A DNA stretch of 64,000 nt from an uncultured Gemmatimonadales bacterium (GCA_963731305.1 CAVSUQ010000011.1:11670-75669); one strand, 5' to 3'. Positions 2,789 to 63,978 are shown, counted from the stretch's first letter. The notes: generated from the sequence alone by a model not told the origin. Made by a program: numbers and translations.

Positions 2789-2840
2789 CAGATTCCAGAG
2801 CAGCAAACCGCACAGCCACACATTCGACGACGGTCTAACC

Positions 2841-4062: not shown

Positions 4063-4249
4063 GCGACGCGGCTTCCGTCGCGAAAGCCGGCTCTAGTAAA
4101 CAGATGTTTCCAGAGACGCGATAATCCGGATTGGGCGTTCCAGGTCAGCTAGTCGCCGCGGAATGCGTACAGAGCGTAGCGATCCGTTTTCGCGCTAGAA
4201 TATCCGCTTGCAGCTGATCCAGCGTCTCCTTCCACGAAGGCCATTCCGC

Positions 4250-7200: not shown

Positions 7201-7614
7201 CTTGCAGCGATGGCGAAGAATCAGAGCATCGACGTCAATCCACTCAAGGCGCAACTCGATTCGATCGCACCCGACGAAGCGCGCGGTGGTCGCGGCTTCG
7301 GCGGATTCGGTCGCGGCGGGCCACGCCCACCACCGACGCTGAACGGAGCAAGCACGACAGCGCTAGCGGCGTCGCTCGCGATGCAGGCGGCGGAGATCGC
7401 TCCGACGGAATCCCAGATTGCCGCGTGTGCGCGTGCGAGGGAAGAGGCGCGCACAGTAATGGCGCGCTGGAACGCGTACCGCACGACTGGACTCGCAGCG
7501 CTGAACGCAACGCTCAAGGCCAAGGGTCAGCCGGCGATCACGGTACCAGCGCCGAGAATGCATCCAGCGTTGCCGAGCGATGCGAACGGTAATGAGAACG
7601 AGAACGAAGGATAG
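4250..7614 (+). pseudogene. Secreted BNR/Asp-box (sortilin/VPS10-like) repeat glycosyl-hydrolase-like protein; intact for about 2.6 kb, then 2-3 frame changes between about 6840 and 7010
   Basis: Signal peptide MSISRFMSAAAVATTCAATLAGVASVASAQS. Repeated S-x-D-x-G-x-T-W motifs (KSTDGGKTW, RSTDGGRTF, KSTDGGTTW, THDGGKTW). The C-terminus continues as LYWPSRIRSMPTSAGMHRISWNMRYQPL in ORF 6720-7592, then as PPGQYTVRLTVGGRSYTQPLTVRLDPRV in ORF 7024-7614. Confidence 0.75.
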
Positions 7615-7622
7615 GTGAGATA

Positions 7623-7660
7623 CGATGCCCGCGCAGCGTCGATTGAATGCGCGGGCATCG
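7623..7660. terminator. 13-bp perfect stem hairpin between convergent genes (bidirectional terminator candidate)
   Basis: cgatgcccgcgca (7623-7635) pairs perfectly with tgcgcgggcatcg (7648-7660), with a 12-nt loop. It lies between the stop at 7614 (+) and the stop at 7692 (-). Confidence 0.55.
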
Positions 7661-7691
7661 TGGTACGCATATCCGGTATTTCGGTGGACGC

Positions 7692-8171
7692 CTACTTGTT
7701 GGCAGGCGGTTTAGCTACGCCCGTCGTATCTGCACGCCAATCGATCGTATAGCGAAAGCTGAAGTTGACCTGAGCGTCGCACGGCTCGACACGGTACAAT
7801 AATTCCTGTTTGCCGGGTGTCACACGGACGTTGATGCTGCTGGGCTCATCGCAGTCCTGCCTGATGTTCACGCATCTGAGCAGTGTAACGTCGTACACGA
7901 CTATCGGGACGGTCGAGGCGTTCTGAACGCGAATCTCCTTGTAGGGAGATCCCCCGAACTTCTGCAGGAGCAGGGTAGTCGTCGTCACGGTCTCATTGCT
8001 AGGTGCGACGTATTTGGCTGGTTTGCTCTGCGCACTGGCGGCAACGGATGGAACGATGAGCGCAACGACCGCACACGCTACTGCAATTCGCGATGCGGGT
8101 TGCGTCGGCCGACGGTACCAGAGATCTGAACCGGTCGAGCGTACTCCATCGATGTTGGTAGAGCGACGCAT
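7692..8171 (-). CDS. Hypothetical secreted protein (159 aa)
   Basis: Intact ORF with an N-terminal hydrophobic signal (RIAVACAVVALIVPSVAASAQS). No family recognised. Confidence 0.5.
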   Translation of the reverse strand: MRRSTNIDGVRSTGSDLWYRRPTQPASRIAVACAVVALIVPSVAASAQSKPAKYVAPSNETVTTTTLLLQKFGGSPYKEIRVQNASTVPIVVYDVTLLRCVNIRQDCDEPSSINVRVTPGKQELLYRVEPCDAQVNFSFRYTIDWRADTTGVAKPPANK

Positions 8172-33385: not shown

Positions 33386-35269
<1,884 letters not shown>

Positions 35270-49794: not shown

Positions 49795-49850
49795 AACCGC
49801 GCACACGCGCTCAGGGGCGAACTCTGAGCGAGGGTGCGCGGTTTAGTTTC
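49795..49850. terminator. Extended hairpin between convergent DUF4142 and RCC1 genes
   Basis: aaccgcgcac (49795-49804) pairs with gtgcgcggtt (49834-49843). An inner stem cgctcag/ctgagcg is present. It is followed by the moderately T-rich tagtttcc. Confidence 0.5.
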
Positions 49851-51282
49851 CTGCAATGTTATTGCCGGCTGGTGTTGCTGCATCGATCGTGTCGCCGCTA
49901 CCGAGTTCTCCGTATTGATTGCCTCCCCAGCACCACAGACGGCCGGTCACAGTGATGCCGCACGTACTCCACACTCCGACATCGATGTGCTGAAACTGAA
50001 TTCCATCGAGGACCTGGTTCGGCGCAGTAACAGAATGCAGTTGGTTTAGAACCAGGCCCAGACCGTTCTGGCCGTCATCTTCGGTTCCCCAGCAGTAGGC
50101 GAATCCGCCCGCGAGCCCGCAAATGAATGCGACGCCAGGCTGAAGCGTGGTAAACGGGGGGCCGTTGCCGAGGAAGCCTACCACACCGTTCGCGGGCTGC
50201 GATATACCGAATGGAAACACGAAGGCCGCGTCCCAGCACGACGCAGTGTTGGAGCCCGTTGTCCCGCAAACTGCTGACCCATCTGGAGCGGATCTGAGAG
50301 ACGTGAACTTTGTTGCGTCCTTTCGGGTCGGCGTCAGTTGCGGCGTACCATTCAGACTTGCGTTGCCCCAGCATACTGCTGTGCTATCCGTCGCGATTCC
50401 GCATGTACCGTCGGTGTCTGCAGTCACCGAGGTGAACTTGAAGTTGCCCGCCACTTTCGTTGGGGTATTCGTGCCGGTGGAATTACCGATGCCGAGCTGA
50501 CCGCTTGTATTCGTGCCCCAGCAGTACACGTCACCGATTTGTGTCAATCCGCAAATGTGAGCGAATCCAGCAGCGGCTTGTGTAAAGTTCAATCCAGTCG
50601 CGATTGCGCGTGGCGCTTTCGTTCCACTTGTGTCGGTCGGAATAGTTCCCCAGCAATACAGGTCGCCAATCGACGTGAGACCACAAGTAAACGAGTTTCC
50701 GAGTACCAGGCTCGTGAAGGATGGAACTCCATTCACGAGTATCGGCCTGGTATATACTGCCTGTGATGAAGCAGGATCGACCCAACCGCCGGAATTGTCT
50801 CCCCAGCAATAAGTGGCGCCGCCTACTGATAATGCGCAAGCGTGCCTGTCCTTGACCGCTACGAGCGCAAACCTGGATTCGGGCGGCGGTGGTGGGGTGA
50901 TCACGATAGCAATGCTGTCAGTGAAGTTGCCAGCAGCGACGTAAATCGTTGATTGGCCCTGAGCCAGGGCCGTTACGATTCCGTTGCTGGAAACGGACGC
51001 CAGCGACTGATCCGAGGAACTCCAGGTGGCACTATAACTTGTGAGCGGTTTGCTCTGTGCATCCAGGACCGTGTCCACCAGTTGCTCGGAGACGCCGATA
51101 TCCATAACCGCAACGCGCGGAGCAACAAATAGCCTCGTCGGAATCGGCGCCTGCGGCTGCGTCGGCAGCGCCGAACCTGGAGACGCCGAGTCGCCACCGC
51201 AGGCCAGGATGGCGAGACTCAGTACAACGAGATATGGAAGAGTTGCTCGGCGTGCATACGATACAAGGTGCGACTGCGCCAT
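49843..51282 (-). CDS. Lipoprotein with Big_2 Ig-like domain and RCC1-like (beta-propeller) repeats
   Basis: Start MAQSHLVSYARRATLPYLVVLSLAILACGG (ATG 51282). Big_2-like region (ATWSSSDQSLASVSSNGIVTALAQGQSTIYV). Six or seven repeats of the type YCWG.N..GQLG (CWGDNSGG, YCWGTNTSGQLG, YCWGTEDDGQNG, WCWGGNQYGELG). Confidence 0.75.
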   Translation of the reverse strand: MAQSHLVSYARRATLPYLVVLSLAILACGGDSASPGSALPTQPQAPIPTRLFVAPRVAVMDIGVSEQLVDTVLDAQSKPLTSYSATWSSSDQSLASVSSNGIVTALAQGQSTIYVAAGNFTDSIAIVITPPPPPESRFALVAVKDRHACALSVGGATYCWGDNSGGWVDPASSQAVYTRPILVNGVPSFTSLVLGNSFTCGLTSIGDLYCWGTIPTDTSGTKAPRAIATGLNFTQAAAGFAHICGLTQIGDVYCWGTNTSGQLGIGNSTGTNTPTKVAGNFKFTSVTADTDGTCGIATDSTAVCWGNASLNGTPQLTPTRKDATKFTSLRSAPDGSAVCGTTGSNTASCWDAAFVFPFGISQPANGVVGFLGNGPPFTTLQPGVAFICGLAGGFAYCWGTEDDGQNGLGLVLNQLHSVTAPNQVLDGIQFQHIDVGVWSTCGITVTGRLWCWGGNQYGELGSGDTIDAATPAGNNIAGN

Positions 51283-51435
51283 TAATACTCCACGCCAGGC
51301 AAATGTAAGTACAAAGACGTACGTTGCTGCTAAGGTCCTGCGCGACGCGGCGGCAACAAGAGCGCCATAATATGCGATGTCCTTACGCAATACGAAAGAC
51401 GCTGGCAGAGGTGCATCCGGCAAACCGGGGTCAGT

Positions 51436-51539: not shown

Positions 51540-51870
51540 GGTGCCAGGTCTTGCGCGGTGCGCGTTTCACGGCACGGGTGGTCCGGCTCGCGCATGAGTA
51601 ATGAATACCGAGATGTTCTGTGATTGCGCGTTACGAAGCCGCCACTCGCAAACGAATCAGTGATCGCGTGATTCTGCTCGACCAGATTGCGCCCCATCTT
51701 ATCTTGCGGCGCTTGACTTTGCACTGCAGGCAGTTGCTAGGCAGGATGCAGCGTTTTTTGTCGCCGATCTGACGCAAGGTATGACACCACTGCATCGCGT
51801 TGCGGGGAACGTAGATGCGGTTGCGGTTGCTCTGGGTGTAACGCGATCGGCTACATACCGCAGGATGCAC
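51540..51870 (-). pseudogene. Decayed IS200-like (Y1, COG1943-type) transposase remnant with DnaA-type HTH tail (copy A)
   Basis: The minus strand reads ...RYTQSNRNRIYVPRNAMQWCHTLRQIGDKKRCILPSNCL (resembles the YHV..RGN.R..IF...D...FL motif). After a stop it reads AITEHLGIHYSCASRTTRAVKRA (resembles the SL.eIae.fG....stVsr HTH). Only about 110 codons remain. Confidence 0.45.
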
Positions 51871-51995
51871 CGACTAGGTGTTGCCGTTCCAAGAAGAGGA
51901 CCACGCCTCAGGCCGAGCAATGAGAGCGACGACGCCCTCGCGATGAGCAACCGCTAGCAGGGATCCCGTCACCCGCAAAGATTGAACCTCAGGAG

Positions 51996-52330: not shown

Positions 52331-55300
52331 ATGAGATCTTCCCTGAGATTGTCATCGGTTAGTGATCGCCATCTCGGCTTCGTACATCAACTCAGATCGA
52401 GGCTGACGAGATGCCTTTGGATCGTCGCATTCTGGGCGCTCGCGATCCCAGCCGCGGCGTATGCTCAAGCGAAAAGCGGGAAGGTGATTCCGCTGATCGG
52501 AGGCAATGCGCTGGTAACGATCTATCCTTCCTCAGACAATGTCACGGTCTCAGGTAGTACTACGCACACATATCAATTTGATCTCGGTAACTCCGGGACC
52601 GGCAACACGACAGCGACGCTCAGCACTCCCACCTGTAGCGGCGCGGTCAGCGGTTGTTCGGTCTCACCGACGAGCGTCTCGCTGCCTGCCAATGGTGCGG
52701 GTGCGGTGGCGACGGTGAGCTATACCGCGGCAGCTACGGGTACGGGCACCATCATCCTCAACGCCAACTGGCCGTCCGGGAACAACGTGCAAGGCACACT
52801 CACCGTGACGGTGCAGAGCGCGACACCTGCAGTCTCGGTGAGTCCCAATCCGAACTACTCAGCCGAAAGCTTCGCCACGAACGATCCTAACTTCTCGGTC
52901 AAGAACAACGGTAACACGGCTTCTACTTACAACCTCTCTGTAGACTGCTCGGGCAACATCTCGGCCTGCTCCGTGGGCTCACCGAGCGCAAGTGTATCAC
53001 CGGGTAGCTCGACAGCCGCCACGGTCTATTACACCACCGGACCATGGACGAGTGGAAACGGCACGGCCACACTGACGGCGACCTCTGTTCTCACCGGTCA
53101 GTCGACCAATACGGCCGTCACAGTAGTCCCGCTTTCACCGGCGGTGAGCGTAACGCCTGACGGAGGAACTCCGAGCCCCGAGCCGGGCGTCGGAGCCAAT
53201 GTCAGTGTGCCATTCACGGTGACTGACGTTGGGAACTCGAGTCCCACTACGTATTCGCTCGTGTGCGGCTACTCGGGCGTTGTGACGAGCTGCTCGGTCA
53301 CACCAAGTGTCCAGGTATACATTGGCTCGCCGCAAACGGTTACGGTGAGCTACACGACAAGCACCAATACGGCAGGTGGTACGGGGCAGGTGACGCTCAC
53401 TGCGACCGCAGGCGGCCCTCAGGTACACACATACTCGGACGCCGGTAACTACAACGTTGCCGTGGCTGATGCGAGAACGTATACGCCGGTTGTCACACCC
53501 AAGGGCAGCCCGACTGGCCAAGCCAGCCCCTATACCTTGACTACTTACAAGTTCGCCGTCAAGAACACGGGCGATACGCAGGCGAGCTACACGCTGACAA
53601 CTCCGACGTGCACGGGCACGTCTGGTGGGTGTAGCGTGACCAGCCCGATCACGGTCAATCCTGGTCAGACCGATAGCGTAGCGGTGAGCTTTACAACTGG
53701 CGCTGCCGGTCAGAACGTGGCGCTCGACCTTCACGCTGCGATGAGTGCTCATGGAGTCACATTCGCAGACGACGGCACGGCCAGTATAAATGTGTCGTAC
53801 AGGCTTCAGGTCTCGACGGCGTTCATGAACAACGACGATCAGGACATGAGCCTCTGTGCTGCATCGTGCTTTGCAATGACGGCAGCAAGGAGCACGGTGC
53901 CGTACTACACACTCGATGCGCCGCGAAACGTAACGCTCGTGTACAACGGAGATCGTGCCTTCCCGAGACCGTTCATCTACGCTGACGTCTCAGATTCAAC
54001 GGCTCCGAGCTCCATCAGCAGCTACACGCTCGAGGTGAAGCGACTGGGCGTCGATCTTCCATTTGTCAACGGCGAGACCAAGCTGACCTTCCAGGGCACG
54101 AGTAGTCCCGCGACGACGTACCGCTTAGCGGGCCAGATCGATATGTCGAGTTATGCGACCAATGTGGACTCCGTGACATTAGTCGTGACGGCTTATTACA
54201 CGAACGGCGAGAGCGACGTCACGCCGGTCAAGACGCAGCTCATGTGGGTCAATTCGACACTCAATACACAGGCTGCGCCAATCGCTAAAGGGTGGCGGAT
54301 AGCGGGGATGCAGTATTTCAGAGGAACGCCCGAAGGGATCGGATCGTCCGGCGGCGGCTACATGATTGAGAACGGCGACGGGTCGGCCACATACTTCGCA
54401 TATAATGGTGCGATAGGTGCGGATCTCAGCACGCTCGCCTACGACAACGTTTCCAAGTGGATCAGGACGTACCAGGACGGAAGCAAGGTCGCATTCGATG
54501 GCGGTGGGCGAATGCTGTACGCTACCGATCGACTTGGGCGCGAGACACAGTTCATCTATGGTGGCACCGGTAATTGGAAACTCGTAGGGATCATTGAGCC
54601 GATGCGTTCGAGTGGTCACTCGACGTCGGCGCCATACGATTCGCTCACTTATGACGGCAATGGCAACCTCTCAGCGATTATCGAGACAGGCGGCACAGGT
54701 GGCCGCACGACCAGCGTTACCGTCGACGGGAGTGGACACCTGACGCGAATTACCGATCCTGACGGCGGTTACGACAGCTACGGCTACGACGGCTCGGGTC
54801 GGCTTAGCACGATCACAGACCGGCGTGGCAACACGACGACCTACAATTATGGTCTCACGTGGAAGCTTTCCAGCGTTGTGAGTCCATCGGTACCGATCGA
54901 CGCTGGCGGCGGAACGACAACAATGGGCACACCGACTACGAACATCTCGCCTTGGCAGGCGATCGGTGTACCATTCGATACTACAGCAATCACTCCAGCG
55001 GCTCTTACGCTACCAGCCAATGTCCTGGCGATTGTTACCGATCCCAAGAACGACACCACCAGGATGTATCCGGATCGCTGGGGCGAGCTATTAAAGACCG
55101 TCGACGCGCTTGGGAACACTACGACGATTCAGCGTTCCGGATTTCTCCCAACTGTCATTACTCATCCTGACGGAAGTGTGGACTCTGCGTCCTACTACGC
55201 TAGTGGCTTGTTGCAGACGCAACACTCGGCAGGTCAGCAGACTGTGAGCTATACCTACGGCAACATGAACCAGCTGCAGAGTGAATCCGGTAGCGGTGTG

Positions 55301-57889
55301 GTGACCGTGACAAACGTGCTCGACAGTCTGGGCCGCACAATCAAGACGACCTACGGCACGGTGACTGGCGATACGACGATTTTCAAGTACGACTCGGTGA
55401 CCAAGAACGTGGCGAGCATGTTCAGGCCGGACACGGGGCTCGTGACCTATCAGTACGACTCCAAGTTTGGGAACTCGAGCACGGAGACCGATCCGGGTAG
55501 CCGGGTGACTCAGTCCTACTTCGATAACTATGGCCGGGACACTGCGGACAAGGCGCCGCAGTATCCAATGACCAAAACCGTGTACGACGTCTTGAACCGA
55601 GTGACAGCACAGTACAACGGAGTCGCCGCTAACCCAATCCGGATCGCGTACGATGCGTTACTGCCGGTATCGGTGCGGGATCCATTGAGCCATGTAGATT
55701 CTACCGAGTATGACGCCGCTGGTAACGTCGCGCGACACTTCGGCTATGCATCTGCAACTGTCCCCACGACGATGAGATACGACCTAGCAAGCCGGCCGAC
55801 GAGTGTGACCAACCGGCGTGGCCAGGAGATAGATGTTACCTACGACCCGCTTGGACGTGTCTTGACTAAGACGGCAGACAGTGCGACGGATCATTTCACG
55901 TACTCGGCCAACGGTCTAATTCAGACCGCCTACAATGCCACTGATACGGTGCGCACTGTATCGGTACCAAGTGCGCTACTGGACACGGTCCAGACGACAA
56001 TGGCAGCAACTGGCGTCACGTCGCATATTTATACGATCGTACACCGCGCGAGCAGCGACGCCGGTGGGACGGATTCGACCACGATATCGAGCAACGGAGC
56101 GCCGGCCCAGTTCGTGACGCGGCGCTACGTGAACGATGCTGCAAGCGGTATGTTGAGCGCCATCAATTTGGGATCAAGCATTGGTCAGGGGAGCTTCACG
56201 TACGATGCGGCCAGCCGGCGCGTCGCCACCGCATGGCCCACTGCTGGCAGCAGCTCCTATTATCTATCGACCGGCACGCGCCAGTATCGGACTTACGGCA
56301 CACTCGACCCGTCCTTCTATGTGGGCTACGCTGTGGACTCGGCGGGGCGGATCTTGAGAGATCACAGGCACTACGGCTCGCCCACGGCGTACAGCAATCG
56401 CGTGTTTGGTTACGACGCGCTGGGCCGCTATACAGGGAGAGACAGTCTTAGCGATGCGACATATCCGTGGTTCTGCGGCGGCTCTGGTCGCTTCGATCCC
56501 AACTACGGGGAGTTTGGCTGCGCGATCGACAGCGTGATGACGCCCAACTCGTACGCCTACGATGACGCCGAGAACAGAGTCGGCGGCGGTATTCATTACG
56601 GCGTAGGCGACGAGGTGACGTCGTCCGACGGCTTCAGCTACACGTACGACGCCGACGGCAATGTCGCAACGCGTACTCAGTCCAGCACGGGCTCGGTGTG
56701 GACCTACAACTGGAGCTCGGACAACAGACTCTTGAGCGCAAGTACGAGCTTGTACGGTATTCCGAGCAACACGGTGAGCTTCGACTACGACGCGCTGGGA
56801 GAACCTGTGGTGAAGCGAGGCAGTACAGGTCAGGTAACGCGAGTCACACTGTACGATGGAGGCCAGATACTTGCCGATCTCGATTCATCGGGGCACAGAG
56901 AGGCAGAATACGTCTACGACGCCGGAACGGACGCGCCATATGCCATGCTCACAGGTACGGACACGGTGAGCGCGGTACGATACTACGCCCAGGACGATCT
57001 AGGGAACGTGCAGGGTCAGTTTGCAGACTACACGCGCTCAACGGAGACTGTATCGTACGGGGATTGGGGTCTTCCGACGGTGAGTGGCGAGACCGCGAAC
57101 CGGCTCACGTGGAAAGGTCTCTCATATGATCCGGATGTGGGACTCACGTACGTGAGAGCCAGGTGGTACGATCCCAACATCGGACGATTCGTGAGCGAGG
57201 ACCCCGCGGGCCTACAGGGCGGGATCAATCCTTACGTGTTCGCTAACAACGATCCGATCAATGGAGCTGATCCGAGTGGTGCGGATCCAGGATACGATGA
57301 CTCCAATAATGAGGGCAGTGGAGACGATGGGGGGTCTTGTACATACACAGTCCGATACCAGTATCCGTTATTGGAGGGCAACACTGGACTGGCCGGAGCT
57401 ATCCCTGGAACGGTGGAAATTATTGGAATGGAATGCCCAAACAGTGGCGTATCACAAGGCCCAACGCCTAGTAGCGGGGCTACAAAACAGCAACCCAAGC
57501 CGACTTTGCCTCCCTGTGCGCCCCCGGCAGCAAGAGGTAACGTAACCTACAAATTCGGGATTCCAACTGCCTCGCCAGCCGTGGCAAACTTTATGACGTG
57601 TACCTCGGCCTGCATGGGTGGTGCTACCTTTCGAGCATCATCGACGTCAGAAGCCCATTCGCTAGCCGACCCGCATACAAGAGGGTTTGCTGTAGATGGG
57701 GAGATACCGGGAAGTGTCGGTCAGATATTCCAGTGTGCGGCAAATTGCGGAGCGGTATTTCAGTTGAACGAATATACGAATCCGTCGCCGCACGCCACGG
57801 CCGGTCATTACCATTTCCAGCTCGTCCCTGGTAAGAACGGCGCTACCGGGCCCTATTATGCAAGATGCACGTACGCTACAAAGCCATGA
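52331..57889 (+). CDS. Rhs/YD-repeat polymorphic toxin (1852 aa): Sec signal, four Cys-pair Ig-like repeats, YD-repeat shell, and a LAS (M15-like) zinc-peptidase-type C-terminal toxin domain
   Basis: Signal CLWIVAFWALAIPAAAYA-QA. Many YD repeats (YDGNGNLSAI, YGYDGSGRLSTITDRRGNTTTYNY, YTYDADGNVATR). Rhs core end YVRARWYDPNIGRFVSEDPAGLQGGINPYVFANNDPINGADPSG. The C-terminal tip contains HTRGFAVD (H-x6-D, 57674-57697) and GHYHF (H-x-H, 57806-57814). Confidence 0.9.
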   Translation: MRSSLRLSSVSDRHLGFVHQLRSRLTRCLWIVAFWALAIPAAAYAQAKSGKVIPLIGGNALVTIYPSSDNVTVSGSTTHTYQFDLGNSGTGNTTATLSTPTCSGAVSGCSVSPTSVSLPANGAGAVATVSYTAAATGTGTIILNANWPSGNNVQGTLTVTVQSATPAVSVSPNPNYSAESFATNDPNFSVKNNGNTASTYNLSVDCSGNISACSVGSPSASVSPGSSTAATVYYTTGPWTSGNGTATLTATSVLTGQSTNTAVTVVPLSPAVSVTPDGGTPSPEPGVGANVSVPFTVTDVGNSSPTTYSLVCGYSGVVTSCSVTPSVQVYIGSPQTVTVSYTTSTNTAGGTGQVTLTATAGGPQVHTYSDAGNYNVAVADARTYTPVVTPKGSPTGQASPYTLTTYKFAVKNTGDTQASYTLTTPTCTGTSGGCSVTSPITVNPGQTDSVAVSFTTGAAGQNVALDLHAAMSAHGVTFADDGTASINVSYRLQVSTAFMNNDDQDMSLCAASCFAMTAARSTVPYYTLDAPRNVTLVYNGDRAFPRPFIYADVSDSTAPSSISSYTLEVKRLGVDLPFVNGETKLTFQGTSSPATTYRLAGQIDMSSYATNVDSVTLVVTAYYTNGESDVTPVKTQLMWVNSTLNTQAAPIAKGWRIAGMQYFRGTPEGIGSSGGGYMIENGDGSATYFAYNGAIGADLSTLAYDNVSKWIRTYQDGSKVAFDGGGRMLYATDRLGRETQFIYGGTGNWKLVGIIEPMRSSGHSTSAPYDSLTYDGNGNLSAIIETGGTGGRTTSVTVDGSGHLTRITDPDGGYDSYGYDGSGRLSTITDRRGNTTTYNYGLTWKLSSVVSPSVPIDAGGGTTTMGTPTTNISPWQAIGVPFDTTAITPAALTLPANVLAIVTDPKNDTTRMYPDRWGELLKTVDALGNTTTIQRSGFLPTVITHPDGSVDSASYYASGLLQTQHSAGQQTVSYTYGNMNQLQSESGSGVVTVTNVLDSLGRTIKTTYGTVTGDTTIFKYDSVTKNVASMFRPDTGLVTYQYDSKFGNSSTETDPGSRVTQSYFDNYGRDTADKAPQYPMTKTVYDVLNRVTAQYNGVAANPIRIAYDALLPVSVRDPLSHVDSTEYDAAGNVARHFGYASATVPTTMRYDLASRPTSVTNRRGQEIDVTYDPLGRVLTKTADSATDHFTYSANGLIQTAYNATDTVRTVSVPSALLDTVQTTMAATGVTSHIYTIVHRASSDAGGTDSTTISSNGAPAQFVTRRYVNDAASGMLSAINLGSSIGQGSFTYDAASRRVATAWPTAGSSSYYLSTGTRQYRTYGTLDPSFYVGYAVDSAGRILRDHRHYGSPTAYSNRVFGYDALGRYTGRDSLSDATYPWFCGGSGRFDPNYGEFGCAIDSVMTPNSYAYDDAENRVGGGIHYGVGDEVTSSDGFSYTYDADGNVATRTQSSTGSVWTYNWSSDNRLLSASTSLYGIPSNTVSFDYDALGEPVVKRGSTGQVTRVTLYDGGQILADLDSSGHREAEYVYDAGTDAPYAMLTGTDTVSAVRYYAQDDLGNVQGQFADYTRSTETVSYGDWGLPTVSGETANRLTWKGLSYDPDVGLTYVRARWYDPNIGRFVSEDPAGLQGGINPYVFANNDPINGADPSGADPGYDDSNNEGSGDDGGSCTYTVRYQYPLLEGNTGLAGAIPGTVEIIGMECPNSGVSQGPTPSSGATKQQPKPTLPPCAPPAARGNVTYKFGIPTASPAVANFMTCTSACMGGATFRASSTSEAHSLADPHTRGFAVDGEIPGSVGQIFQCAANCGAVFQLNEYTNPSPHATAGHYHFQLVPGKNGATGPYYARCTYATKP

Positions 57890-58419
57890 GAATCCGTAAG
57901 GTTTGCGCGCTGTTGTGTATGCCATTATTAGGGGCCACGGCTCAAGGTCGTGATTGCACGGCGCTACCGACAGCGGCTCGAGTAGCATTAGCGCCAGAGT
58001 TGCAGCAAGGGTGGCGCATAGTTGCAACAGCGGATCTTCCGTCTGATGATCGGGCACTATGGCACCAGTACCACCCGGGGCAATGTCCGGGTGTGGCTAC
58101 GGGACACTTCAGCAACAGCGACGACGTCGCCTATTCGATCGCGCTCTTACATTCGAGCTCAGCGGGTCAATACACCGAGGAATTGCTTCTACTGGTCCCG
58201 ATCAGAGCGAGCTATTCACTCAAGACGGTCGTGAGCCGTACCAGAGTGGTAAGTCCGTTTGTAGTGTGGAAATTGCCACCGGGAAGGTACAAGGCCCTAT
58301 ACACAAAATCGGCGGTCTTTATCCCGTTGGATTCTTTTGTCTACGAGAAGATGGAAGCGACAGCAACTCAATATTTCATGCGAGATGGGCACCTTCGATC
58401 TATTCTGATTAGCGACTAA
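57886..58419 (+). CDS. Candidate cognate immunity protein (secreted/periplasmic, 177 aa)
   Basis: The ATG overlaps the Rhs TGA (ccATGAga). Signal peptide MRIRKVCALLCMPLLGATAQG. No family recognised; the call rests on its position directly after the Rhs toxin tip. Confidence 0.6.
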   Translation: MRIRKVCALLCMPLLGATAQGRDCTALPTAARVALAPELQQGWRIVATADLPSDDRALWHQYHPGQCPGVATGHFSNSDDVAYSIALLHSSSAGQYTEELLLLVPIRASYSLKTVVSRTRVVSPFVVWKLPPGRYKALYTKSAVFIPLDSFVYEKMEATATQYFMRDGHLRSILISD

Positions 58420-58482
58420 CGTGATAGAGGCTGTTGGGGCAGATAGTTGGCGGGTCACTCCGAACTGAGTCCATCTGGAGCG

Positions 58483-58640
58483 CTAGTTTTTCAGTCGCGA
58501 GCGGCTCGGGATGAAGTTTCCACCCGTTGCTGTTCTAGAGTACGCTCTTGCGTACTCGGCAGGGGTGTCGTTGGCTAAGCTACTGTGTGACCGCACGTTG
58601 TTGCAGTCCGTTGACGTTCCCCACGAAATGAGCCCGAAGT
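58483..58640 (-). pseudogene. C-terminal remnant of an rve (DDE integrase-core, IS3/IS481-like) transposase
   Basis: The end of ORF 58483-58725 reads ...ISWGTSTDCNNVRSHSSLANDTPAEYARAY. This resembles the W..YN..RPHSSLG..TP.E. tail of rve transposases. No upstream catalytic domain is present. Confidence 0.5.
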
Positions 58641-59110
58641 TAAGTTGACAGTCTGACCGGTCGCCAGAGGGTGGCCAGGAGGACTGGAAGATGCGGAAGA
58701 GTCGATCCACCGAGGCGCAGCACATTGACGTACGGTGTCAGGTCCGCCCATGCGTGTTCTGCACCGATGATCCGGCTCACGCGTGAGTAGTGATGGAGAC
58801 CGAAGTGTTCGCCGATCGCCTGCATCGTGCAGTCGCCACCGGCGACGGGATCGATGATCGCGCGATTCCGCTTGGCCCGACTGCCCGCCGGAGCTTACTC
58901 TGCTAGTGGTTGCTCGGTCGGACGCAGCAATTTCCATCTTTGGGCTGCTGCAGGGCGAACGCAGCGATGCGCCAGTGTCGTCTAGGATCGTGAGGAACAT
59001 CATCCGGTCACAGTCATCGAAATAGACCGGGTCCTAGCCGTCTCCACGTAAAATTATGTGATAGAGAGCACCGGGAATTGGAGACCCAGCGGTCTGAACA
59101 CTCACCGATC
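58640..59110 (-). pseudogene. Decayed IS200-like (Y1, COG1943-type) transposase remnant with DnaA-type HTH tail (copy B)
   Basis: Hand translation of the minus strand gives PIPGALYHIILRGDG-stop-DPVYFDDCDRMMFLTILDDTGAS, then WRIAAFAL, then AKRNRAIIDPVAGGDCTMQAIGEHFGLHHYSRVSRIIGAE in shifted frames. The HTH region is roughly three-quarters identical at nucleotide level to copy A (rough hand alignment). Confidence 0.5.
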
Positions 59111-59582
59111 ACACAACCGCTGGTGGACAGCGTGCGAATTGAGCTATGCGCGAGTGTGGCTAGGTCCTGCCTCGCTGCACAACGCGATATCTGACACCCG
59201 ATTACCCACTGTAGGATGAGACCTACTACTGTCGGATCGCTGCTACTCTGGTGCAAAGACTCGAAAGAATTTCGTCAAAAGTACTGCGCTTTTTGACCAC
59301 GCTCTGCGCTTTCCGGACGAATCGCGCAGCCTTTATCAGCGTCATGTTCGGACCATTTGGCTTTATGCATCGCAGTACGACAAAGAAGCAATGAAAATAG
59401 ACAGTCATTTGTACTCGTTCAGGCGCTGAGGTTCGAATAATAAGCCGCTTTAACTTAATATCAGCCACGTCAAAAAACGCATATCGTGTTCTGAATTCGC
59501 ACTTGCCGGTTCGACGCATACAGCTACGTTGTACTCCGCATCAAGTCAAAGCTCATCATGCGGATCCACTGCGCGGATTACT

Positions 59583-61088
59583 ATGCCGTCGTTCCGCAAC
59601 GCGAGGCCGTCTGTGTCATCGATTGCCGAAGGTGATTTGGAGTCAGTCGTTGTTGCCGGTGTGAGTCGAGAGTACCTGCTCCATCATCGAGTCTGTCCTG
59701 ACAAGCTCGATGGCGACGGTACACTCATCGTGGCTGTAGGACCCGGGGCGTTTCTCGAAGCGATTCCGGAGCTGAGCAACGTATATGGCCGGCGAGTCGC
59801 TACGCGCGAAGCATCGGATGACGATCTCGAGCGCATGATCGAGCGCATTACGGCGCACGCTGAGAGTGGCGCTGAGCCTTTACGCGGCGGTGAGGAAGAT
59901 ACCGCGGACGTTAGAGAGATCGCAAATCAGCCGCCGGTAATTCGTTATGTGAACACGTTGCTGCACGATGCATACGAGGCGGGAGCAAGCGACGTCCACA
60001 TAGAGTCCACACGCGGCGGTGCAGTGGCCCGCGCGCGCGTCGACGGTTTGCTCGCATCCACGATAGAGCCACCGCGGCGGTTGCACGATGCAGTCGTGTC
60101 GCGGCTCAAGCTGCTTGCCGATCTGGATATCTCGGAGCGCAGACGGCCGCAGGATGGGCGCATACGTGTGCGTGTGGACAACACGGAGCTCTACCTGCGC
60201 GTCTCGACCGTACCCACAGTCTACGGCGAGAGCGTCGTACTGCGCTTGCTTGATCGCGGCACGCGTCCCGTCGACCTCACTGCGCTTGGTATGCCGGATG
60301 ATATTCTGCGGGCGATGACGACGGCGATCGATCGTCCACACGGGATGGTGCTCGTCACGGGTCCAACTGGCAGCGGAAAGACGACTACGCTCTACAGCGC
60401 TCTGCGTAGACGTGATATCCGATCGGAGAAGGTGGTAACTGTGGAAGATCCGGTCGAGTACCAGCTCGAAGGGGTCACGCAGGTGCCGGTGCATCGCCAG
60501 GCCGGCGTCACGTTCGCCTCCGCGCTCCGATCGATCCTGAGGCAGGACCCGGACGTCGTGATGATTGGTGAAATGCGTGATATGGAGACCGCCGAGATCG
60601 CGATTCAGGCGTCGATGACAGGCCACCTCGTCTTTTCTACCCTTCATACCAACGATGCAATCGGTGCTCTACCGAGACTGTTCGATCTCGGCATCGCTCC
60701 ATATCTCATCGCGGCAACGCTCACCGCGATTCAGGCTCAACGCCTGGTGCGTAACGCATGCCCGGAATGCAAGTCACACTGCGAGCTTCGCGGTGAGCTC
60801 GCCGACCTGCAACGCAGCATCGCGCCCGAAATCTCTGCTGCTGATTTCGTTCGCGTGAACGGCTGTCCCGCATGTCGTGGTACAGGCTTCAAAGGGCGCA
60901 TCGGGATCTTCGAGATGGTTGCGGTCGACGACGCTCTCAGAGCTGCGATTGCCAGGAGCGCGCCGAGGGCGGAGCTCAAGTCCCTTGCGGACCAGCGCGG
61001 ATACAGGCCGATGATAGCCGACGGAATCGCGAAGGCCGCGCGTGGCATTACAACCATGGACGAGGTGCTCAGAGTCTGCAATGCCTAG
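59583..61088 (+). CDS. gspE: Type II secretion system ATPase GspE
   Basis: T2SSE_N-like N-terminus, Walker A VTGPTGSGKTTTLY, Asp/His boxes, and the tetracysteine CPECKSHC...CPACRGTG. ATG 59583, with an alternative TTG at 59529. Confidence 0.9.
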   Translation: MPSFRNARPSVSSIAEGDLESVVVAGVSREYLLHHRVCPDKLDGDGTLIVAVGPGAFLEAIPELSNVYGRRVATREASDDDLERMIERITAHAESGAEPLRGGEEDTADVREIANQPPVIRYVNTLLHDAYEAGASDVHIESTRGGAVARARVDGLLASTIEPPRRLHDAVVSRLKLLADLDISERRRPQDGRIRVRVDNTELYLRVSTVPTVYGESVVLRLLDRGTRPVDLTALGMPDDILRAMTTAIDRPHGMVLVTGPTGSGKTTTLYSALRRRDIRSEKVVTVEDPVEYQLEGVTQVPVHRQAGVTFASALRSILRQDPDVVMIGEMRDMETAEIAIQASMTGHLVFSTLHTNDAIGALPRLFDLGIAPYLIAATLTAIQAQRLVRNACPECKSHCELRGELADLQRSIAPEISAADFVRVNGCPACRGTGFKGRIGIFEMVAVDDALRAAIARSAPRAELKSLADQRGYRPMIADGIAKAARGITTMDEVLRVCNA

Positions 61089-61545
61089 AGAGCTGCATAA
61101 CTCCCCACGTGACCGGCGTGCGTTCACATTGATGGAACTGCTCGTCGTCATCGCGATCATCGCCACACTCGCAGCGATTGTGGCGCCAGCGATATTCCGA
61201 AACCTCGGCGACGCGAAAACGAGCGCCGCTCAGAGCCAGATCGAGATGTTGTCGATGGCGCTCAACTCGTATCGTCTCGACAATGGCGATTACCCGACGC
61301 AGGCTCAGGGGCTTGCAGCACTGCGCGTTGTGCCCACTGGCAGCGATGCGCCCCCAAACTGGCGCGGTCCGTACCTGACGCGTGACGTGCCGCTGGATCC
61401 ATGGCGACGTCCTTACATCTACACGTTCCCCGGTGTCGAGAATCAGGGAAGCTTCGACCTCTACACGCTCGGCAAGGACGGCAAGCCTGGCGGTGATGAC
61501 GAGGATGCGGATGTCACTTCGTGGGGCGGACCGGTGCATCAGTGA
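61081..61545 (+). CDS. gspG: Type II secretion major pseudopilin GspG
   Basis: Prepilin motif RRAFTLMELLVVIAIIATLAAIVAP. GspG signature PPNWRGPYLTRDVPLDPWRRPYIYTFPG...FDLYTLGKDGKPGGDDEDADVTSW. Confidence 0.9.
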   Translation: MPRELHNSPRDRRAFTLMELLVVIAIIATLAAIVAPAIFRNLGDAKTSAAQSQIEMLSMALNSYRLDNGDYPTQAQGLAALRVVPTGSDAPPNWRGPYLTRDVPLDPWRRPYIYTFPGVENQGSFDLYTLGKDGKPGGDDEDADVTSWGGPVHQ

Positions 61546-62753
61546 TCAGCCCCTCCGTTGGTTACAATGGCCCGAGTGCATTCAGGTATCGGGCTGCGCG
61601 TGCCGATGGCGCACTGCTACGCGGAACGATGATAGCGACGGATGAGCGATCCGCCGTGGATGCGCTCCATGCGCAAGGTCTGTATCCGATCGAGGTGGTG
61701 CGAGCGCGGTTCACATCGAGGCGAAGCGTGCCACGCTCGTCCGATGTTGCGCCGGGCTTGCGGGTGCTGGCAAACCTGTTGGCCGCCAACATTCCAATGT
61801 CTCGCACACTCGCGACGTTCGAGGAGCTCGCACCCAAGTCATGGGCAGCAGCGGCGGCGGCTATTCGCGAGCGCGTGAGGACCGGCGGACGTCTGGCAGA
61901 CGGCTTGCGAGAGGATGCAGGCCTGTCACCCGTGCTCGCGGGGATCATCGCCGCGGGCGAGTCATCCGGTGATCTCGCTCCGGCCGTTTTGCGGAGCGCA
62001 GAGCTGTCGGAAGAGAACGCGGCGCTGAGGTCAGCGGTGCGCGGGGCGCTCGTGTATCCAACGATTCTGCTGATCGCGGGAGCGTGCTCCGTCGGACTAC
62101 TTGTAGGCGTAGTCCTTCCGCGCTTCGCTTCGATTCTTGCCGATACAGGACAGGCGCCTCCGCCGCTGACGCAGCTCGTACTCAACGTCACTTCGGCTAT
62201 CCAGCAAAATGCAGTCTCGGCTGCAGTAATCGTGATACTCGGCGTTGTCGGTTGGCGCATCTGGACCAGGACGGCCAACGGCGGAGTGGTCTGGAGTGGT
62301 CTGCTTCTCCGCCTTCCCGGTGTAGGTGGGATCAGGCGTTCCGCCGCAACCTCACGCGTCTGCACTGCGATGGCGGCGCTGCTCGAATCGGGAGTCCCAG
62401 CGGCCGTCTCGCTCGGCCGCGCGGCGACAGCGGCGGGAGATGCAGCGATCGAATCACGTCTCGCCGCCGCGCGTGCGGGTGTAACACGCGGTGAGTCCAT
62501 CGGACGCGCGCTCGAAGACTCTTCGGCGCTGACGATCGCCGCGGCGCGTCTGATACGTGCAGGCGAGGAGTCGGGCCGAGTTTCGGCGATGTTCCTCCAC
62601 GCTGCGCGCATCGAAGGTGAGAGGGCAAGGGAGCTGACGCGGAGTGCGGTGCGACTCGTCGAGCCGTCACTCATCCTCGTGTTCGGCGCGATCGTGGCTC
62701 TGATTTCGGGAGCGCTGCTGCAGGCAGTGTACGCCATCCACCCAGTGCGCTGA
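61542..62753 (+). CDS. gspF: Type II secretion inner-membrane platform protein GspF
   Basis: Two T2SSF repeats (ANIPMSRTLATFEE..., ESGVPAAVSLGRAA...) and three TM segments. GTG 61542 overlaps the gspG stop (GTGA), with an alternative GTG at 61521. Confidence 0.85.
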   Translation: MISPSVGYNGPSAFRYRAARADGALLRGTMIATDERSAVDALHAQGLYPIEVVRARFTSRRSVPRSSDVAPGLRVLANLLAANIPMSRTLATFEELAPKSWAAAAAAIRERVRTGGRLADGLREDAGLSPVLAGIIAAGESSGDLAPAVLRSAELSEENAALRSAVRGALVYPTILLIAGACSVGLLVGVVLPRFASILADTGQAPPPLTQLVLNVTSAIQQNAVSAAVIVILGVVGWRIWTRTANGGVVWSGLLLRLPGVGGIRRSAATSRVCTAMAALLESGVPAAVSLGRAATAAGDAAIESRLAAARAGVTRGESIGRALEDSSALTIAAARLIRAGEESGRVSAMFLHAARIEGERARELTRSAVRLVEPSLILVFGAIVALISGALLQAVYAIHPVR

Positions 62754-63073
62754 ATGGCTCGATCCTCGCAACAGTCGGCGCGGTGTCACGCTGATAGAGC
62801 TGCTGGTGACGATCGCCATACTCAGCGTAATACTCACGATCACAACTCTCTCTGGCCGGCGAGAAGCGCCCAACTACGACTGCGTCACCGCTCTCGGTTC
62901 AGGTCCGCGCGCTCCGTTCCAGCGCAATCGCTTCTGGAGCTCCGAAGACCGCTGTGTTGAGCGATACCGTGGGCGCGGTGCTCGTGACCGCGCTGCCGGA
63001 CGGCCGCGTGGTGTCCGACATGCCGAATCTCGACAGGAATGCCGGTGTCGTGCGGAGCCCAAGTGCTCAATAG
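62754..63073 (+). pseudogene. Minor pseudopilin (GspH-like), two frame changes
   Basis: ATG 62754 (MARSSQQ..), then the prepilin motif RGVTLIELLVTIAILSVILTITTLS in frame +1. A plausible tail LAGEKRPTTTASPLSVQVRALRSSAIASGAPKTAVLSDTVGAVLVTALPDGRVVSD follows in the third frame (hand translation). Confidence 0.5.
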
Positions 63074-63437
63074 CGCACTATGTGGTGCCAGACCGGGCGC
63101 GGTCCTTCTCGAAGTCATAGTTGCGATGACCATCTTCGCGATCGCGAGCACGGCTACGCTCGTGCGTGCTGCACAGGCGCGTCACGTAGTTGTTCTATCG
63201 ATAGCGAGTGAGGATCGACTGAACGCCGCAAGCGCTTTTCTGGATCATGTAGTGCTGTGGCCGAGGGAAGATCTGGATCGGCACCTTGGCACGCACCCGC
63301 AAGGGCCGTGGTGGCTGGACGTGGAACATCCGGTAGCCGAGCTCTACACGATCGCGATCGTGGACTCTGCGTCGCATCAGAAATTGCTCGATACCATCGT
63401 GTATCGTAGCGCACCGCGAGCACAAGGTGCGTATTAA
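63039..63437 (+). CDS. Minor pseudopilin (GspI-like)
   Basis: Prepilin-type N-terminus GAVLLEVIVAMTIFAIASTATL. 132 aa; the start is uncertain (ATG 63039 or GTG 63063). Confidence 0.6.
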   Translation: MPVSCGAQVLNSALCGARPGAVLLEVIVAMTIFAIASTATLVRAAQARHVVVLSIASEDRLNAASAFLDHVVLWPREDLDRHLGTHPQGPWWLDVEHPVAELYTIAIVDSASHQKLLDTIVYRSAPRAQGAY

Positions 63438-63978
63438 GGCGCCGCGTACGGGCTTTACGCTCCTCGAAGTCCTGGTGGCCGTCATAATCGCCGCCACGCT
63501 TCTGCTGTCCGCCGACGCGGTTTTCGAGCAGTTGGCGTCGTCGCGAGACGGAACCGCCAGATCCACCGGCGTCAGAGATGAGAAGCAGAATGCGGACGCG
63601 TTGATACGCGGCTGGGTGCGACAGATCGACATATCGCCAGTCGGTGGGTCGTCGCAGCCGCACGTCTTTGTTGGCGACGCTGGCGAGACGAGATTCACGT
63701 CGTGGTGTGTTGCCGCTGGTGGATGGGAGCGCGAGTGTAGCGTGTCGCTTCGTACCACGGCTGATTCGAGTGGTGTCGGCGTCGTAGCTGTGAGCGCGAC
63801 AGGCGACTCGGCGCGGATTCAGATGCGCGACAGCACGATCGCGCTGCGTTATCTGATCGATGCCAAGGATGGCGGCCACTGGGTAGACCGCTGGCCGTCC
63901 GGACCGACAGTGCCGATAGCAATCGGCATAGTGAGCCCATCCGATACGATAGTCTACAGAGTCGGAGCGCGAGGATGA
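63427..63978 (+). CDS. Minor pseudopilin (GspJ-like)
   Basis: Prepilin-type N-terminus RTGFTLLEVLVAVIIAATLLL. 183 aa. It overlaps both the upstream stop and the next ATG (63975). Confidence 0.6.
   Translation: MRIKAPRTGFTLLEVLVAVIIAATLLLSADAVFEQLASSRDGTARSTGVRDEKQNADALIRGWVRQIDISPVGGSSQPHVFVGDAGETRFTSWCVAAGGWERECSVSLRTTADSSGVGVVAVSATGDSARIQMRDSTIALRYLIDAKDGGHWVDRWPSGPTVPIAIGIVSPSDTIVYRVGARG

Follow-up and report, generated by a model that had tools for sequence, protein, structure and literature searches.

A Sec-signal Rhs protein of an uncultured Gemmatimonadales bacterium with a predicted LAS/M15-like zinc peptidase tip and a candidate periplasmic immunity protein

Introduction

In a 64,000-nt stretch of DNA from an uncultured Gemmatimonadales bacterium (GCA_963731305.1 CAVSUQ010000011.1:11670-75669, called the window below; coordinates are positions in it), a gene for an Rhs polymorphic toxin is followed directly by a second, short gene. 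What does the variable tip of this Rhs protein attack, in which compartment does it act, and does the short gene encode its antidote? An earlier reading of the sequence, referred to here as the original prediction, had proposed that the tip carries the metal-ligand arrangement of the LAS/M15 peptidases and would cleave peptidoglycan in the periplasm, and that the product of the next gene is a periplasmic immunity protein. The Rhs open reading frame (ORF) of 1852 amino acids (aa), the end of its conserved core and the 202-aa variable tip all lie where that prediction had placed them (Table 1).

The analysis reported here leads us to read the two genes as a toxin/immunity module, in which a putative zinc-dependent, disulfide-stapled peptidoglycan peptidase would be paired with a protein in a periplasmic immunity role. 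Judged from sequence comparison and predicted structures, the probability of this reading is about 0.75. The toxin domain and the downstream protein are uncatalogued families, and both sit inside two known frameworks, the Rhs polymorphic toxins and the LAS/M15 peptidases.

Results

The toxin domain family and its active site

As a single sequence, the tip had no match in Pfam, NCBIfam or PDB sequences, and against the Pfam M15 families the window tip gave no match even at E <= 10. When 1.84 billion cluster representatives were searched exhaustively by HMMER with a profile of the last ~123 residues, 205 of them were recovered at E <= 1e-3, 119 with E <= 1e-10. A word-indexed homologue search undersamples this family, returning only three relatives with the tip as query and 13 with the profile, and kinship to known folds emerged only from a 60-sequence profile and a predicted structure. 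Neither the tip nor the downstream protein reaches a Pfam or NCBIfam threshold, which agrees with the earlier statement that they belong to no named toxin or immunity family.

The domain lies at the extreme C-terminus of its carriers (109 of 131 full-length matches have at most 10 residues after it), and the alignment consensus upstream of it is that of an Rhs core (…ARYYxxxxGRFxSxDP…NLYxYVxNNPxxxxDPxGL). The carriers range from fragments up to proteins of 1750 aa. Among the 65 carriers of at least 280 aa, RHS_repeat was matched by 27, RHS by 8 and TEN_YD-shell by 4, and no PAAR, VgrG, LXG or CdiA-type module was found in this set. Rhs-type carriers are the only delivery type recognised for the domain.

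For the active site, domain residue n corresponds to Rhs residue n + 1729, and conservation was counted over 132 aligned domains (Table 1). The original prediction had pointed to an H-x6-D motif followed about 37 residues later by H-x-H. Both are present as described, H1826 lying 37 residues past D1789, and the presumed ligands are invariant or nearly so across the family. Because H53, D60, E85, H97 and H99 are near-invariant in the 132 members, the motifs are no coincidence. Further positions are kept as well (T43 in 128/132, H47 in 116/132), and the family signature can be written as VTSTxE..H....PHxxGxAxD … CxxxCGA … [DN]E..HPS … HxHxQ. Weak M23/LytM profile matches also fall on the H-x-H motif.

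Two CX3C cysteine pairs accompany this site. C28 and C77 are jointly present in 131 of the 132 domains and jointly lost in one, while of C32 and C73 both are found in 99 domains, neither in 31 and only one of the two in 2. In the predicted structure described below, the two helices that carry them span domain residues 20-32 and 67-76. Because the cysteines covary in this way, we infer that the twin CX3C pairs form two disulfides between the helices, and such bonds would suit the toxin domain to an oxidising, extracytoplasmic compartment.

Predicted fold of the toxin domain

A model of the toxin domain was made with AlphaFold2 (AF2) from a 60-sequence alignment, with a mean predicted local distance difference test score (pLDDT) of 93.9 and a predicted template modelling score (pTM) of 0.87. 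When this model was compared with PDB by Foldseek, the top 40 matches all had the Hedgehog/DD-peptidase (LAS/M15) fold. The matches comprised the Zn DD-peptidase of Streptomyces albus G (1lbu, E = 0.012) and the N-domains of Sonic, Indian and Desert hedgehog (Shh, Ihh and Dhh; probability 0.9-0.98, template modelling score (TM) ~0.45-0.54); VldE and VanXYc were within the top 40, the L-Ala-D-Glu peptidase of phage RB49 stood at rank 43 and MepA at ranks 44 and 49. Against BFVD, the best matches were phage multidomain cell-wall hydrolases (E = 1.6e-5 to 1e-3, probability 1.0), several of them annotated as Peptidase M15 or 'Peptidase M15A, C-terminal' and others as 'Murein endopeptidase K' or 'Cell wall hydrolyse'.

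At the sequence level, the family profile matched hedgehog N-domains among PDB sequences across the zinc motif (E = 0.0026-0.02), and its segment 'lrvtsTsesvkahpandpHtrgeAaDvtv' was aligned with the zinc-site region of Shh. The hhalign alignment with the Shh N-domain (ShhN) spans H-x6-D through H-x-H and places GHYHF on AHIH. In mouse Shh numbering, which was fixed by a numbering check and the ligand assignment quoted in PMC6027127, H47 corresponds to H135, H53 to H141, D60 to D148, E85 to E177 (register ±1), H97 to H181 and H99 to H183. The fold search had been put forward as a check of the original prediction, and with 40 LAS/M15 structures at the top of the PDB matches and an Shh profile match at E ~0.003 its outcome favours the LAS/M15 fold.

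A special kinship with Hedgehog was considered and rejected. When 60 members were searched against Pfam, sub-threshold matches favoured Peptidase_M15_3 (6/60, best E = 0.015) over HH_signal (1/60, E = 0.011), identity with Shh is ~15%, and none of the 60 reached the gathering score of HH_signal (PF01085). The many Shh entries among the PDB matches are partly due to the number of solved Shh structures. On the model and profile evidence, the toxin domain is predicted to be a distinct family of LAS/M15 (clan MD) zinc peptidases, with no specific closeness to Hedgehog as compared with the M15 enzymes of bacteria or phages; it is taken as a distinct, uncatalogued family of the clan because its members miss the curated M15 thresholds of Pfam.

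The fold might be right and the target another one. The enzyme would then cut not mature cross-links but another D-Ala-containing or periplasmic substrate, for instance by trimming D-Ala-D-Ala off lipid II or nascent stems in the manner of VanX/VanY, which would starve transpeptidation, or by attack on a periplasmic or outer-membrane protein such as the link between Lpp and peptidoglycan. Bond specificity is not set by the fold alone, the structural neighbours mix a carboxypeptidase/dipeptidase (VanXYc), a DD-carboxypeptidase (S. albus) and endopeptidases, and in Hedgehog proteins this site is preserved although no peptidoglycan substrate of theirs is known (PMC6027127). However, among viral proteins the top matches are multidomain cell-wall hydrolases of phages, in several cases annotated as Peptidase M15 or M15A, and the sequence holds no pointer to a protein substrate. 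We regard such a different target as improbable, and a peptidoglycan peptidase as the better account of the domain.

The downstream gene as candidate immunity gene

The next gene encodes 177 aa and starts on an ATGA overlap, its ATG at 57886-57888 interlocking with the Rhs stop codon TGA at 57887-57889; an alternative in-frame ATG lies at 57865. Its product begins with MRIRKVCALLCMPLLGATA, in which a basic n-region, a hydrophobic core and an A-x-A site precede QG after the predicted cleavage. The overlap and the Sec signal peptide of the original prediction were thus both found in place. Here and for the Rhs protein, signal peptides were called by inspection and hydropathy only. A single-sequence search with the protein gave no match in Pfam, NCBIfam or PDB sequences. 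It has 39 homologues of ~175 aa. Invariant residues of the family include C24 and C67 as well as D50, D55 and H63, the last three being candidate contacts with the toxin.

The gene's position is kept in relatives. Two of them (P0003 at locus L001 and P0002 at L002) have an immunity homologue as the next gene, starting on a 4-nt overlap, and a scan of GTDB species genomes with a 10-sequence query yielded 13 further toxin loci, from Acidobacteriaceae, Bryobacterales, Terriglobia, beta-proteobacteria, Gallionellaceae and Dyella koreensis BB4. According to hmmsearch with the immunity profile, the family lies directly 3' of the toxin in 13 of the 15 loci (Acidobacteriota and Proteobacteria). Both loci without such a neighbour (L017 and L018) hold toxin remnants. 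These copies, from Acidobacteriaceae genomes (L017 6878-7429 and L018 7001-7246), are frameshifted after H-x-H or truncated, have no immunity gene downstream and are apparently decayed toxin modules.

Start codons were examined in 14 loci, and all of them open a signal-peptide-like N-terminus with an invariant Cys within a few residues after it. In these loci the distance between toxin and immunity genes varies between -25 and +26 nt, and five of them offer a start that overlaps the toxin gene by 4 nt: the window, L001, L002, L009 (where it is TTG) and L010. Pairwise identities of toxin and immunity protein are correlated (Mantel r = 0.71, permutation p = 4e-4), with the immunity protein diverging faster (23-46% identity, against 36-69% for the toxin). 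The gene therefore combines a Sec signal with a conserved place immediately 3' of the toxin, the two marks of a periplasmic immunity gene, and the linkage, the signal peptides and the divergence that tracks the toxin all bear out its earlier designation as a periplasmic immunity candidate. We consider its product likely to be the cognate immunity protein, and the linkage of the genes suggests that it binds the toxin.

In its AF2 model (pLDDT 88.8, falling below 50 in the N-terminal segments at residues 1-3 and 15-19), two N-terminal helices are followed by a ten-strand antiparallel beta-meander. The model had no meaningful neighbour in PDB, where the matches were only beta-propeller blade fragments with TM <= 0.33.

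Some homologues occur apart from any toxin. Two of them (P0010 at L003 8001-8555 and P0025 at L005 8001-8525) share the gene order Cupin_5, immunity homologue, DsbA-like Thioredoxin_4 and NAD synthase; a third (P0029 at L004 8001-8525) stands alone in a different neighbourhood, and no Rhs gene was found within 8 kb of any of the three. Such copies fit orphan immunity genes fixed in a lineage; they may also reflect a housekeeping ancestor or role, in which the protein might, for instance, inhibit one of the cell's own M15 hydrolases.

In that light, the 177-aa protein could be a periplasmic accessory factor of the Rhs protein (a chaperone, an adaptor or a receptor-binding partner) or a hitch-hiking housekeeping protein. 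Most homologues are stand-alone, as in the synteny with DsbA-like and NAD-synthase genes, and the predicted fold is unmatched among solved immunity proteins. Yet the gene directly follows the toxin in 13 of 15 loci, and both exceptions carry degraded toxin fragments, which is an antidote-like pattern. The protein's divergence also parallels that of the toxin, though at a higher rate, orphan copies without a toxin are a usual trait of immunity genes, and the product is routed to the compartment in which the toxin is predicted to act. A role other than immunity thus seems very unlikely to us, and the cognate immunity protein remains the favoured interpretation.

The Rhs carrier and its delivery

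The Rhs ORF matched RHS_repeat of Pfam in six stretches (6.6e-16), and YD_repeat_2x (TIGR01643, 7.7e-21) and RHS_core (NF041261, 1.5e-21) of NCBIfam. The Rhs-associated core (TIGR03696, 1.3e-21) covers profile positions 1-75 of 76, its end at 57201-57280 reads ...DPAGLQGGINPYVFANNDPINGADPSG (EDPAGLQGGINPYVFANNDPINGADPSG), and the 202-aa tip follows at 57281-57886. The protein thus shows the RHS/YD shell, a TIGR03696 core with DPxG...DPxG before the tip, and a modular tip with a downstream immunity gene, the attributes of an Rhs polymorphic toxin. By analogy with other Rhs and Tc proteins, the core presumably cleaves off the 202-aa tip. The first part of the tip, a linker or pre-toxin segment, is shared with the closest relative (P0002) alone; elsewhere in the family its place is taken by Q/P-rich linkers, or the toxin comes directly after DPxGL.

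At its N-terminus, the Rhs protein has a long basic n-region, a hydrophobic stretch CLWIVAFWALAIPAAAYA (aa 28-42, mean Kyte-Doolittle hydropathy ~2.1) and an A-x-A site, which confirms the Sec signal that had been claimed for it, with cleavage predicted after A45. Four immunoglobulin-like (Ig-like) repeats follow. Their matches in Pfam, to HYDIN_VesB_CFA65-like_Ig, DUF1573 and Cep192_D3 (families of the Ig-like/ASH type), were all weak and sub-threshold, and the repeats are possibly an adhesion or display module. Counting the one in the signal peptide, the protein contains 21 cysteines, among them those of the Ig-like repeats and the toxin; the other 20 would make 10 pairs if all are bonded.

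Full-length relatives share this signature, since P0086, P0094, P0141, P0184 and P0050 (the last with an incomplete start) have Sec-type signals and 16-24 cysteines. Short carriers (L001 and L015) have, behind a signal peptide, only the last Rhs repeats, followed by core and toxin. In Dyella koreensis BB4 (L015 528-7881; NZ_JADIKD010000006.1:311521-325835), the Rhs protein is split over two genes: the end of a 1983-aa RHS-repeat gene (528-6479) is overlapped by a 302-aa gene (6437-7345), whose product comprises the signal peptide, last Rhs repeats, core and M15-like toxin, and the immunity gene (7357-7881) comes next.

An injector encoded elsewhere, either a type VI secretion system (T6SS) or another contact-dependent one, could also deliver the Rhs protein. 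In that case, what looks like a signal peptide would be either a membrane anchor or the result of a wrongly called start. A T6SS delivers most of the Gram-negative Rhs effectors characterised so far (for example PMC8636562, PMC8765631), and the visible portion of the genome is 64 kb only. Against this, the window holds no PAAR, VgrG, Hcp or other T6SS gene, no PAAR domain was found on the window Rhs protein or in the 65 long members, and the full-length carriers consistently combine Sec signals and 16-24 cysteines with covarying cysteine pairs throughout the protein. We rate T6SS injection as rather unlikely. For the Sec-dependent, T6SS-independent delivery that we propose in its place, the odds appear about even.

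Table 1. Coordinates of the Rhs toxin gene, its parts and the candidate immunity gene in the window. Residue numbers without a letter refer to the encoded protein; residues given as domain positions are numbered from aa 1730.
Feature	Position	Strand	Basis and remarks
Rhs polymorphic toxin gene, 1852 aa	52331..57889	+	Includes stop codon; matches to RHS_repeat, YD_repeat_2x, RHS_core and Rhs_assc_core
Sec-type signal peptide of Rhs, aa 1-45	52331..52465	+	Predicted cleavage AYA/QA after A45; inspection
Four Ig-like repeats, ~105 aa each	52478..53770	+	One C-x6-8-C-[ST]-V cysteine pair per repeat (aa 102, 206, 312, 427); motif scan
RHS/YD-repeat shell, ~aa 650-1575	54278..57055	+	Boundaries approximate; RHS_repeat (6 stretches), NF041261, TIGR01643
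Rhs-associated core, aa 1576-1650, with predicted autoproteolytic release site	57056..57280	+	TIGR03696; motif pair EDPAG...(20 aa)...ADPSG
Linker or pre-toxin segment, aa 1651-1729	57281..57517	+	Acidic/Gly stretch, small Cys-bracketed beta-hairpin-like module (C1670...C1702), Pro-rich spacer
C-terminal toxin domain, aa 1730-1852 (123 residues), predicted LAS/M15-like zinc peptidase	57518..57886	+	Family, AF2 model, Foldseek, Shh profile match
Twin CX3C cysteines C1757, C1761 (helix 1) and C1802, C1806 (helix 2)	57599..57748	+	Covariation and model helices
H-x6-D putative zinc-ligand motif HTRGFAVD (H1782, D1789)	57674..57697	+	Domain H53 132/132, D60 131/132; aligns with Shh zinc ligands
E1814, predicted general base	57770..57772	+	Domain E85 132/132; adjoins Shh E176 (human; mouse E177), register within one residue (hhalign)
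H-x-H motif HYH within GHYHF (H1826; H1828 predicted third zinc ligand)	57806..57814	+	Domain H97 128/132, H99 131/132; aligns with Shh AHIH
Candidate periplasmic immunity gene, 177 aa	57886..58419	+	ATGA overlap with Rhs stop; linkage, co-divergence, AF2 model
Signal peptide of immunity candidate, aa 1-19	57886..57942	+	Predicted cleavage ATA/QG; inspection; invariant C24 shortly after

Genomic setting

The only secretion genes in the window are those of a type II secretion system (T2SS), GspE (59529-61088), GspG (61042-61545) and GspF (61521-62753), which together with pseudopilin-like ORFs occupy 59529-63978, downstream of the Rhs gene and on the same strand. They might constitute a dedicated outer-membrane exporter of the Rhs protein. 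Adjacency and common strand speak for this, as does the Sec signal, which T2SS substrates also carry, and Zhang et al. (2012) label signal-peptide-bearing polymorphic toxins as 'T2SS' type (PMC3482391). However, no GspE, GspG or GspF homologue was found within 7 kb of the toxin in 13 related loci, the two units are separated by a 1.1-kb low-GC stretch without a recognisable gene, and T2SS clusters are commonly housekeeping. Since related toxin loci have no Gsp genes nearby, the adjacency is probably coincidental; a functional link to the neighbouring operon found no support in these loci, and we regard a dedicated exporter as doubtful.

The Rhs-immunity unit and its flanks have a guanine-plus-cytosine (GC) content of 0.50-0.60, against 0.62-0.65 in the surrounding DNA, which is compatible with horizontal acquisition. 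The lowest values of the region (0.50-0.53) occur in the 1.1 kb at 58420-59528, in which no ORF has a recognisable domain. Transposase remnants at 58483-59003 (- strand) were considered there and dropped, since no Pfam match backed them up to E <= 5. In the lower-GC segment shortly before the Rhs gene, a gene at 49843-51423 (- strand) encodes a protein of 526 aa in which a Big_2 Ig-like domain is combined with the beta-propeller repeats of RCC1, and it may belong to the same acquired island as the Rhs gene. Between the two genes, ~370 bp before the Rhs start, a 58-aa ORF at 51781-51957 (+ strand) has a weak match to the Fis-type HTH_8 (E = 0.0016) and may be either a remnant of the C-terminus of a sigma-54 activator or a chance match.

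At the relative's locus L002, more Rhs-core fragments lie downstream of the toxin/immunity pair (1814-4056). The product of 1994-2773 has a Pfam Adenine_glyco (3-methyladenine DNA glycosylase) domain, and this gene could represent an orphan cassette for an Rhs tip whose toxin is a DNA glycosylase.

Elsewhere in the window, an ORF at 33386-34273 (- strand) has a match to cytochrome oxidase subunit I that is confined to the C-terminal third (positions 280-436 of the COX1 profile); it may be frameshifted, truncated or set with a wrong start. No tRNA was found in the window, and promoter and terminator scans of it gave results at or below chance.

Discussion

The question raised by this locus was what the Rhs tip attacks and whether its neighbour is the antidote, and we answer it with a putative wall peptidase and its probable periplasmic immunity protein. 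Several findings weigh against this answer. Curated membership in M15 is lacking, with 0 members at the gathering threshold of Pfam Peptidase_M15, M15_2, M15_3, M15_4 or VanY. The Foldseek E-values against PDB are modest (0.012-0.1) and TM is only ~0.5, and the hhalign probability against a single Shh sequence is 57%. On the side of the immunity protein, many homologues are stand-alone genes in housekeeping contexts, these being most of the 39 and the more distant ones. Finally, after its export by Sec the Rhs protein would have to be displayed at the surface or released, and to pass the outer membrane of a diderm target.

The module could work as follows. The Rhs protein, with its four Ig-like repeats and YD-repeat cage, would be exported by Sec, and its core (EDPAG...ADPSG) would release the 202-aa tip by autoproteolysis. 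In the released peptidase, H1782, D1789 and H1828 are expected to bind zinc, E1814, H1826 and H1776 would complete the catalytic site, and two CX3C-CX3C disulfides would staple the two helices together. In the periplasm or cell-wall compartment of the target, the enzyme would most likely cut a D-amino-acid-containing bond of peptidoglycan, in a stem peptide or a cross-link, and the wall would thereby be weakened. The periplasm of the producer would be guarded by the immunity protein, a Sec-exported protein of 17 kDa with a helical N-terminal part and a beta-meander after it, which would bind the peptidase.

Periplasmic peptidoglycan-hydrolase toxins with cognate immunity proteins are an established class, so the module leaves the current picture unchanged. 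It brings two uncatalogued families into the polymorphic-toxin repertoire, one of toxin domains (~200 clusters at 50% identity) and one of immunity proteins, and its weight is raised by the generality at family level, the consistent Sec/cysteine signature and the unmatched fold of the immunity protein. To our knowledge, Rhs tips that attack the wall rather than target the cytoplasm have rarely been described. The toxin would be a compact (~115 aa), disulfide-stapled M15-like peptidase, and its immunity protein a potential new inhibitor scaffold for this enzyme class. The locus also links an Rhs cage to Sec export and extensive disulfides instead of T6SS, which raises the question of how the periplasm of a diderm target is reached. 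With Dyella koreensis BB4 there is a culturable carrier in which these predictions are directly testable.

A bolder reading joins these points, and we offer it as a speculation that seems unlikely to us. Here the family would stand for a class of Rhs weapons of its own, independent of T6SS, with an unmatched immunity fold and a recruited antidote. Sec-exported, disulfide-rich cages, sometimes made from two genes as in Dyella, may bring a pre-oxidised wall peptidase with its twin CX3C staple to neighbours from outside, and the immunity proteins may have a fold without a solved representative. The immunity fold also exists as a vertically inherited, stand-alone periplasmic gene, which suggests a housekeeping inhibitor of the cell's own M15-type wall hydrolases as the source of the antidote, or as a second role of it. 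HINT and SuFu have already been traced to bacterial toxin systems, and a weaker corollary, if true, is that with the Hedge-like zinc domain of polymorphic toxins the N-terminal half of Hedgehog would join these components.

Compared with known enzymes, the toxin domain shares with the LAS/M15 peptidases (1lbu, VanX/VanY/VanXYc, MepA and phage M15A enzymes) the predicted fold, a predicted extracytoplasmic site of action and the H-x6-D ... H-x-H arrangement with an acidic general base before H-x-H. In VanX, the general base stands 3 residues before H-x-H. The same spacing holds in Shh, whereas E1814 of the toxin lies 11 residues before H-x-H, the extra residues being a conserved HPS-containing insert. 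The domain further differs from LAS/M15 enzymes in its twin CX3C staple, its predicted role as an Rhs C-terminal warhead and its probable immunity protein. The Hedgehog N-domain is its best sequence-profile match in PDB (E = 0.0026), related at the level of fold and active site only, at an identity of ~15%. Bacterial Hh-like DD-peptidases have been described as C-terminal domains of larger proteins, and these bacHh domains are >50% identical to Shh (Roelink, 2018, PMC6027127); unlike the toxin family, they are not reported in Rhs contexts there.

Among toxin/immunity systems, the T6SS peptidoglycan-hydrolase pairs (Tae/Tai and Tge/Tgi) likewise consist of a wall-degrading toxin and a signal-peptide-bearing immunity protein encoded immediately downstream. 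The immunity family itself is unrelated to named immunity families by comparison with Pfam, NCBIfam and PDB. Several T6SS effectors other than Rhs proteins are likewise predicted to carry M15/M23, MepA-like or Zn DD-peptidase domains (PMC6833914, PMC12135965, PMC13340143); they include Tpe14AB of A. baumannii (PMC6833914), WHIX-domain effectors with MepA-like or M15-like domains, and Tse2b of S. rhizophila. Those domains are VgrG-, LysM- or WHIX-linked cargo, whereas the present toxin family is recognised only on PAAR-less Rhs carriers with Sec signals. In the catalogue of Zhang et al. (2012), a text search found no M15, VanY or lysostaphin-type toxin domain (PMC3482391). The same work describes Tox-LD-peptidase, carried by RHS proteins with T2SS- or T6SS-type leaders and predicted to attack peptidoglycan peptides (PMC3482391); that domain is a YkuD-type thiol L,D-transpeptidase beta-barrel (H, S, C), in contrast to the zinc LAS fold predicted here.

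With the Rhs/YD toxins at large (PAAR-Rhs proteins, the Sec-dependent WapA of Bacillus and the BC cocoons of Tc toxins), the locus has in common the YD shell, the DPxG...DPxG core, a swappable tip and a downstream immunity gene. The putative orphan tip cassettes at locus L002 are a further likeness to these polymorphic toxins, and the split of shell from core-plus-toxin genes in Dyella resembles TcB/TcC. Characterised Rhs tips mostly act in the cytoplasm, as nucleases, ADP-ribosyltransferases or deaminases. The tip studied here differs from them as a predicted disulfide-stapled, extracytoplasmic peptidase, carried in a diderm lineage by a cysteine-rich Rhs protein with Ig-like repeats and a predicted export by Sec.

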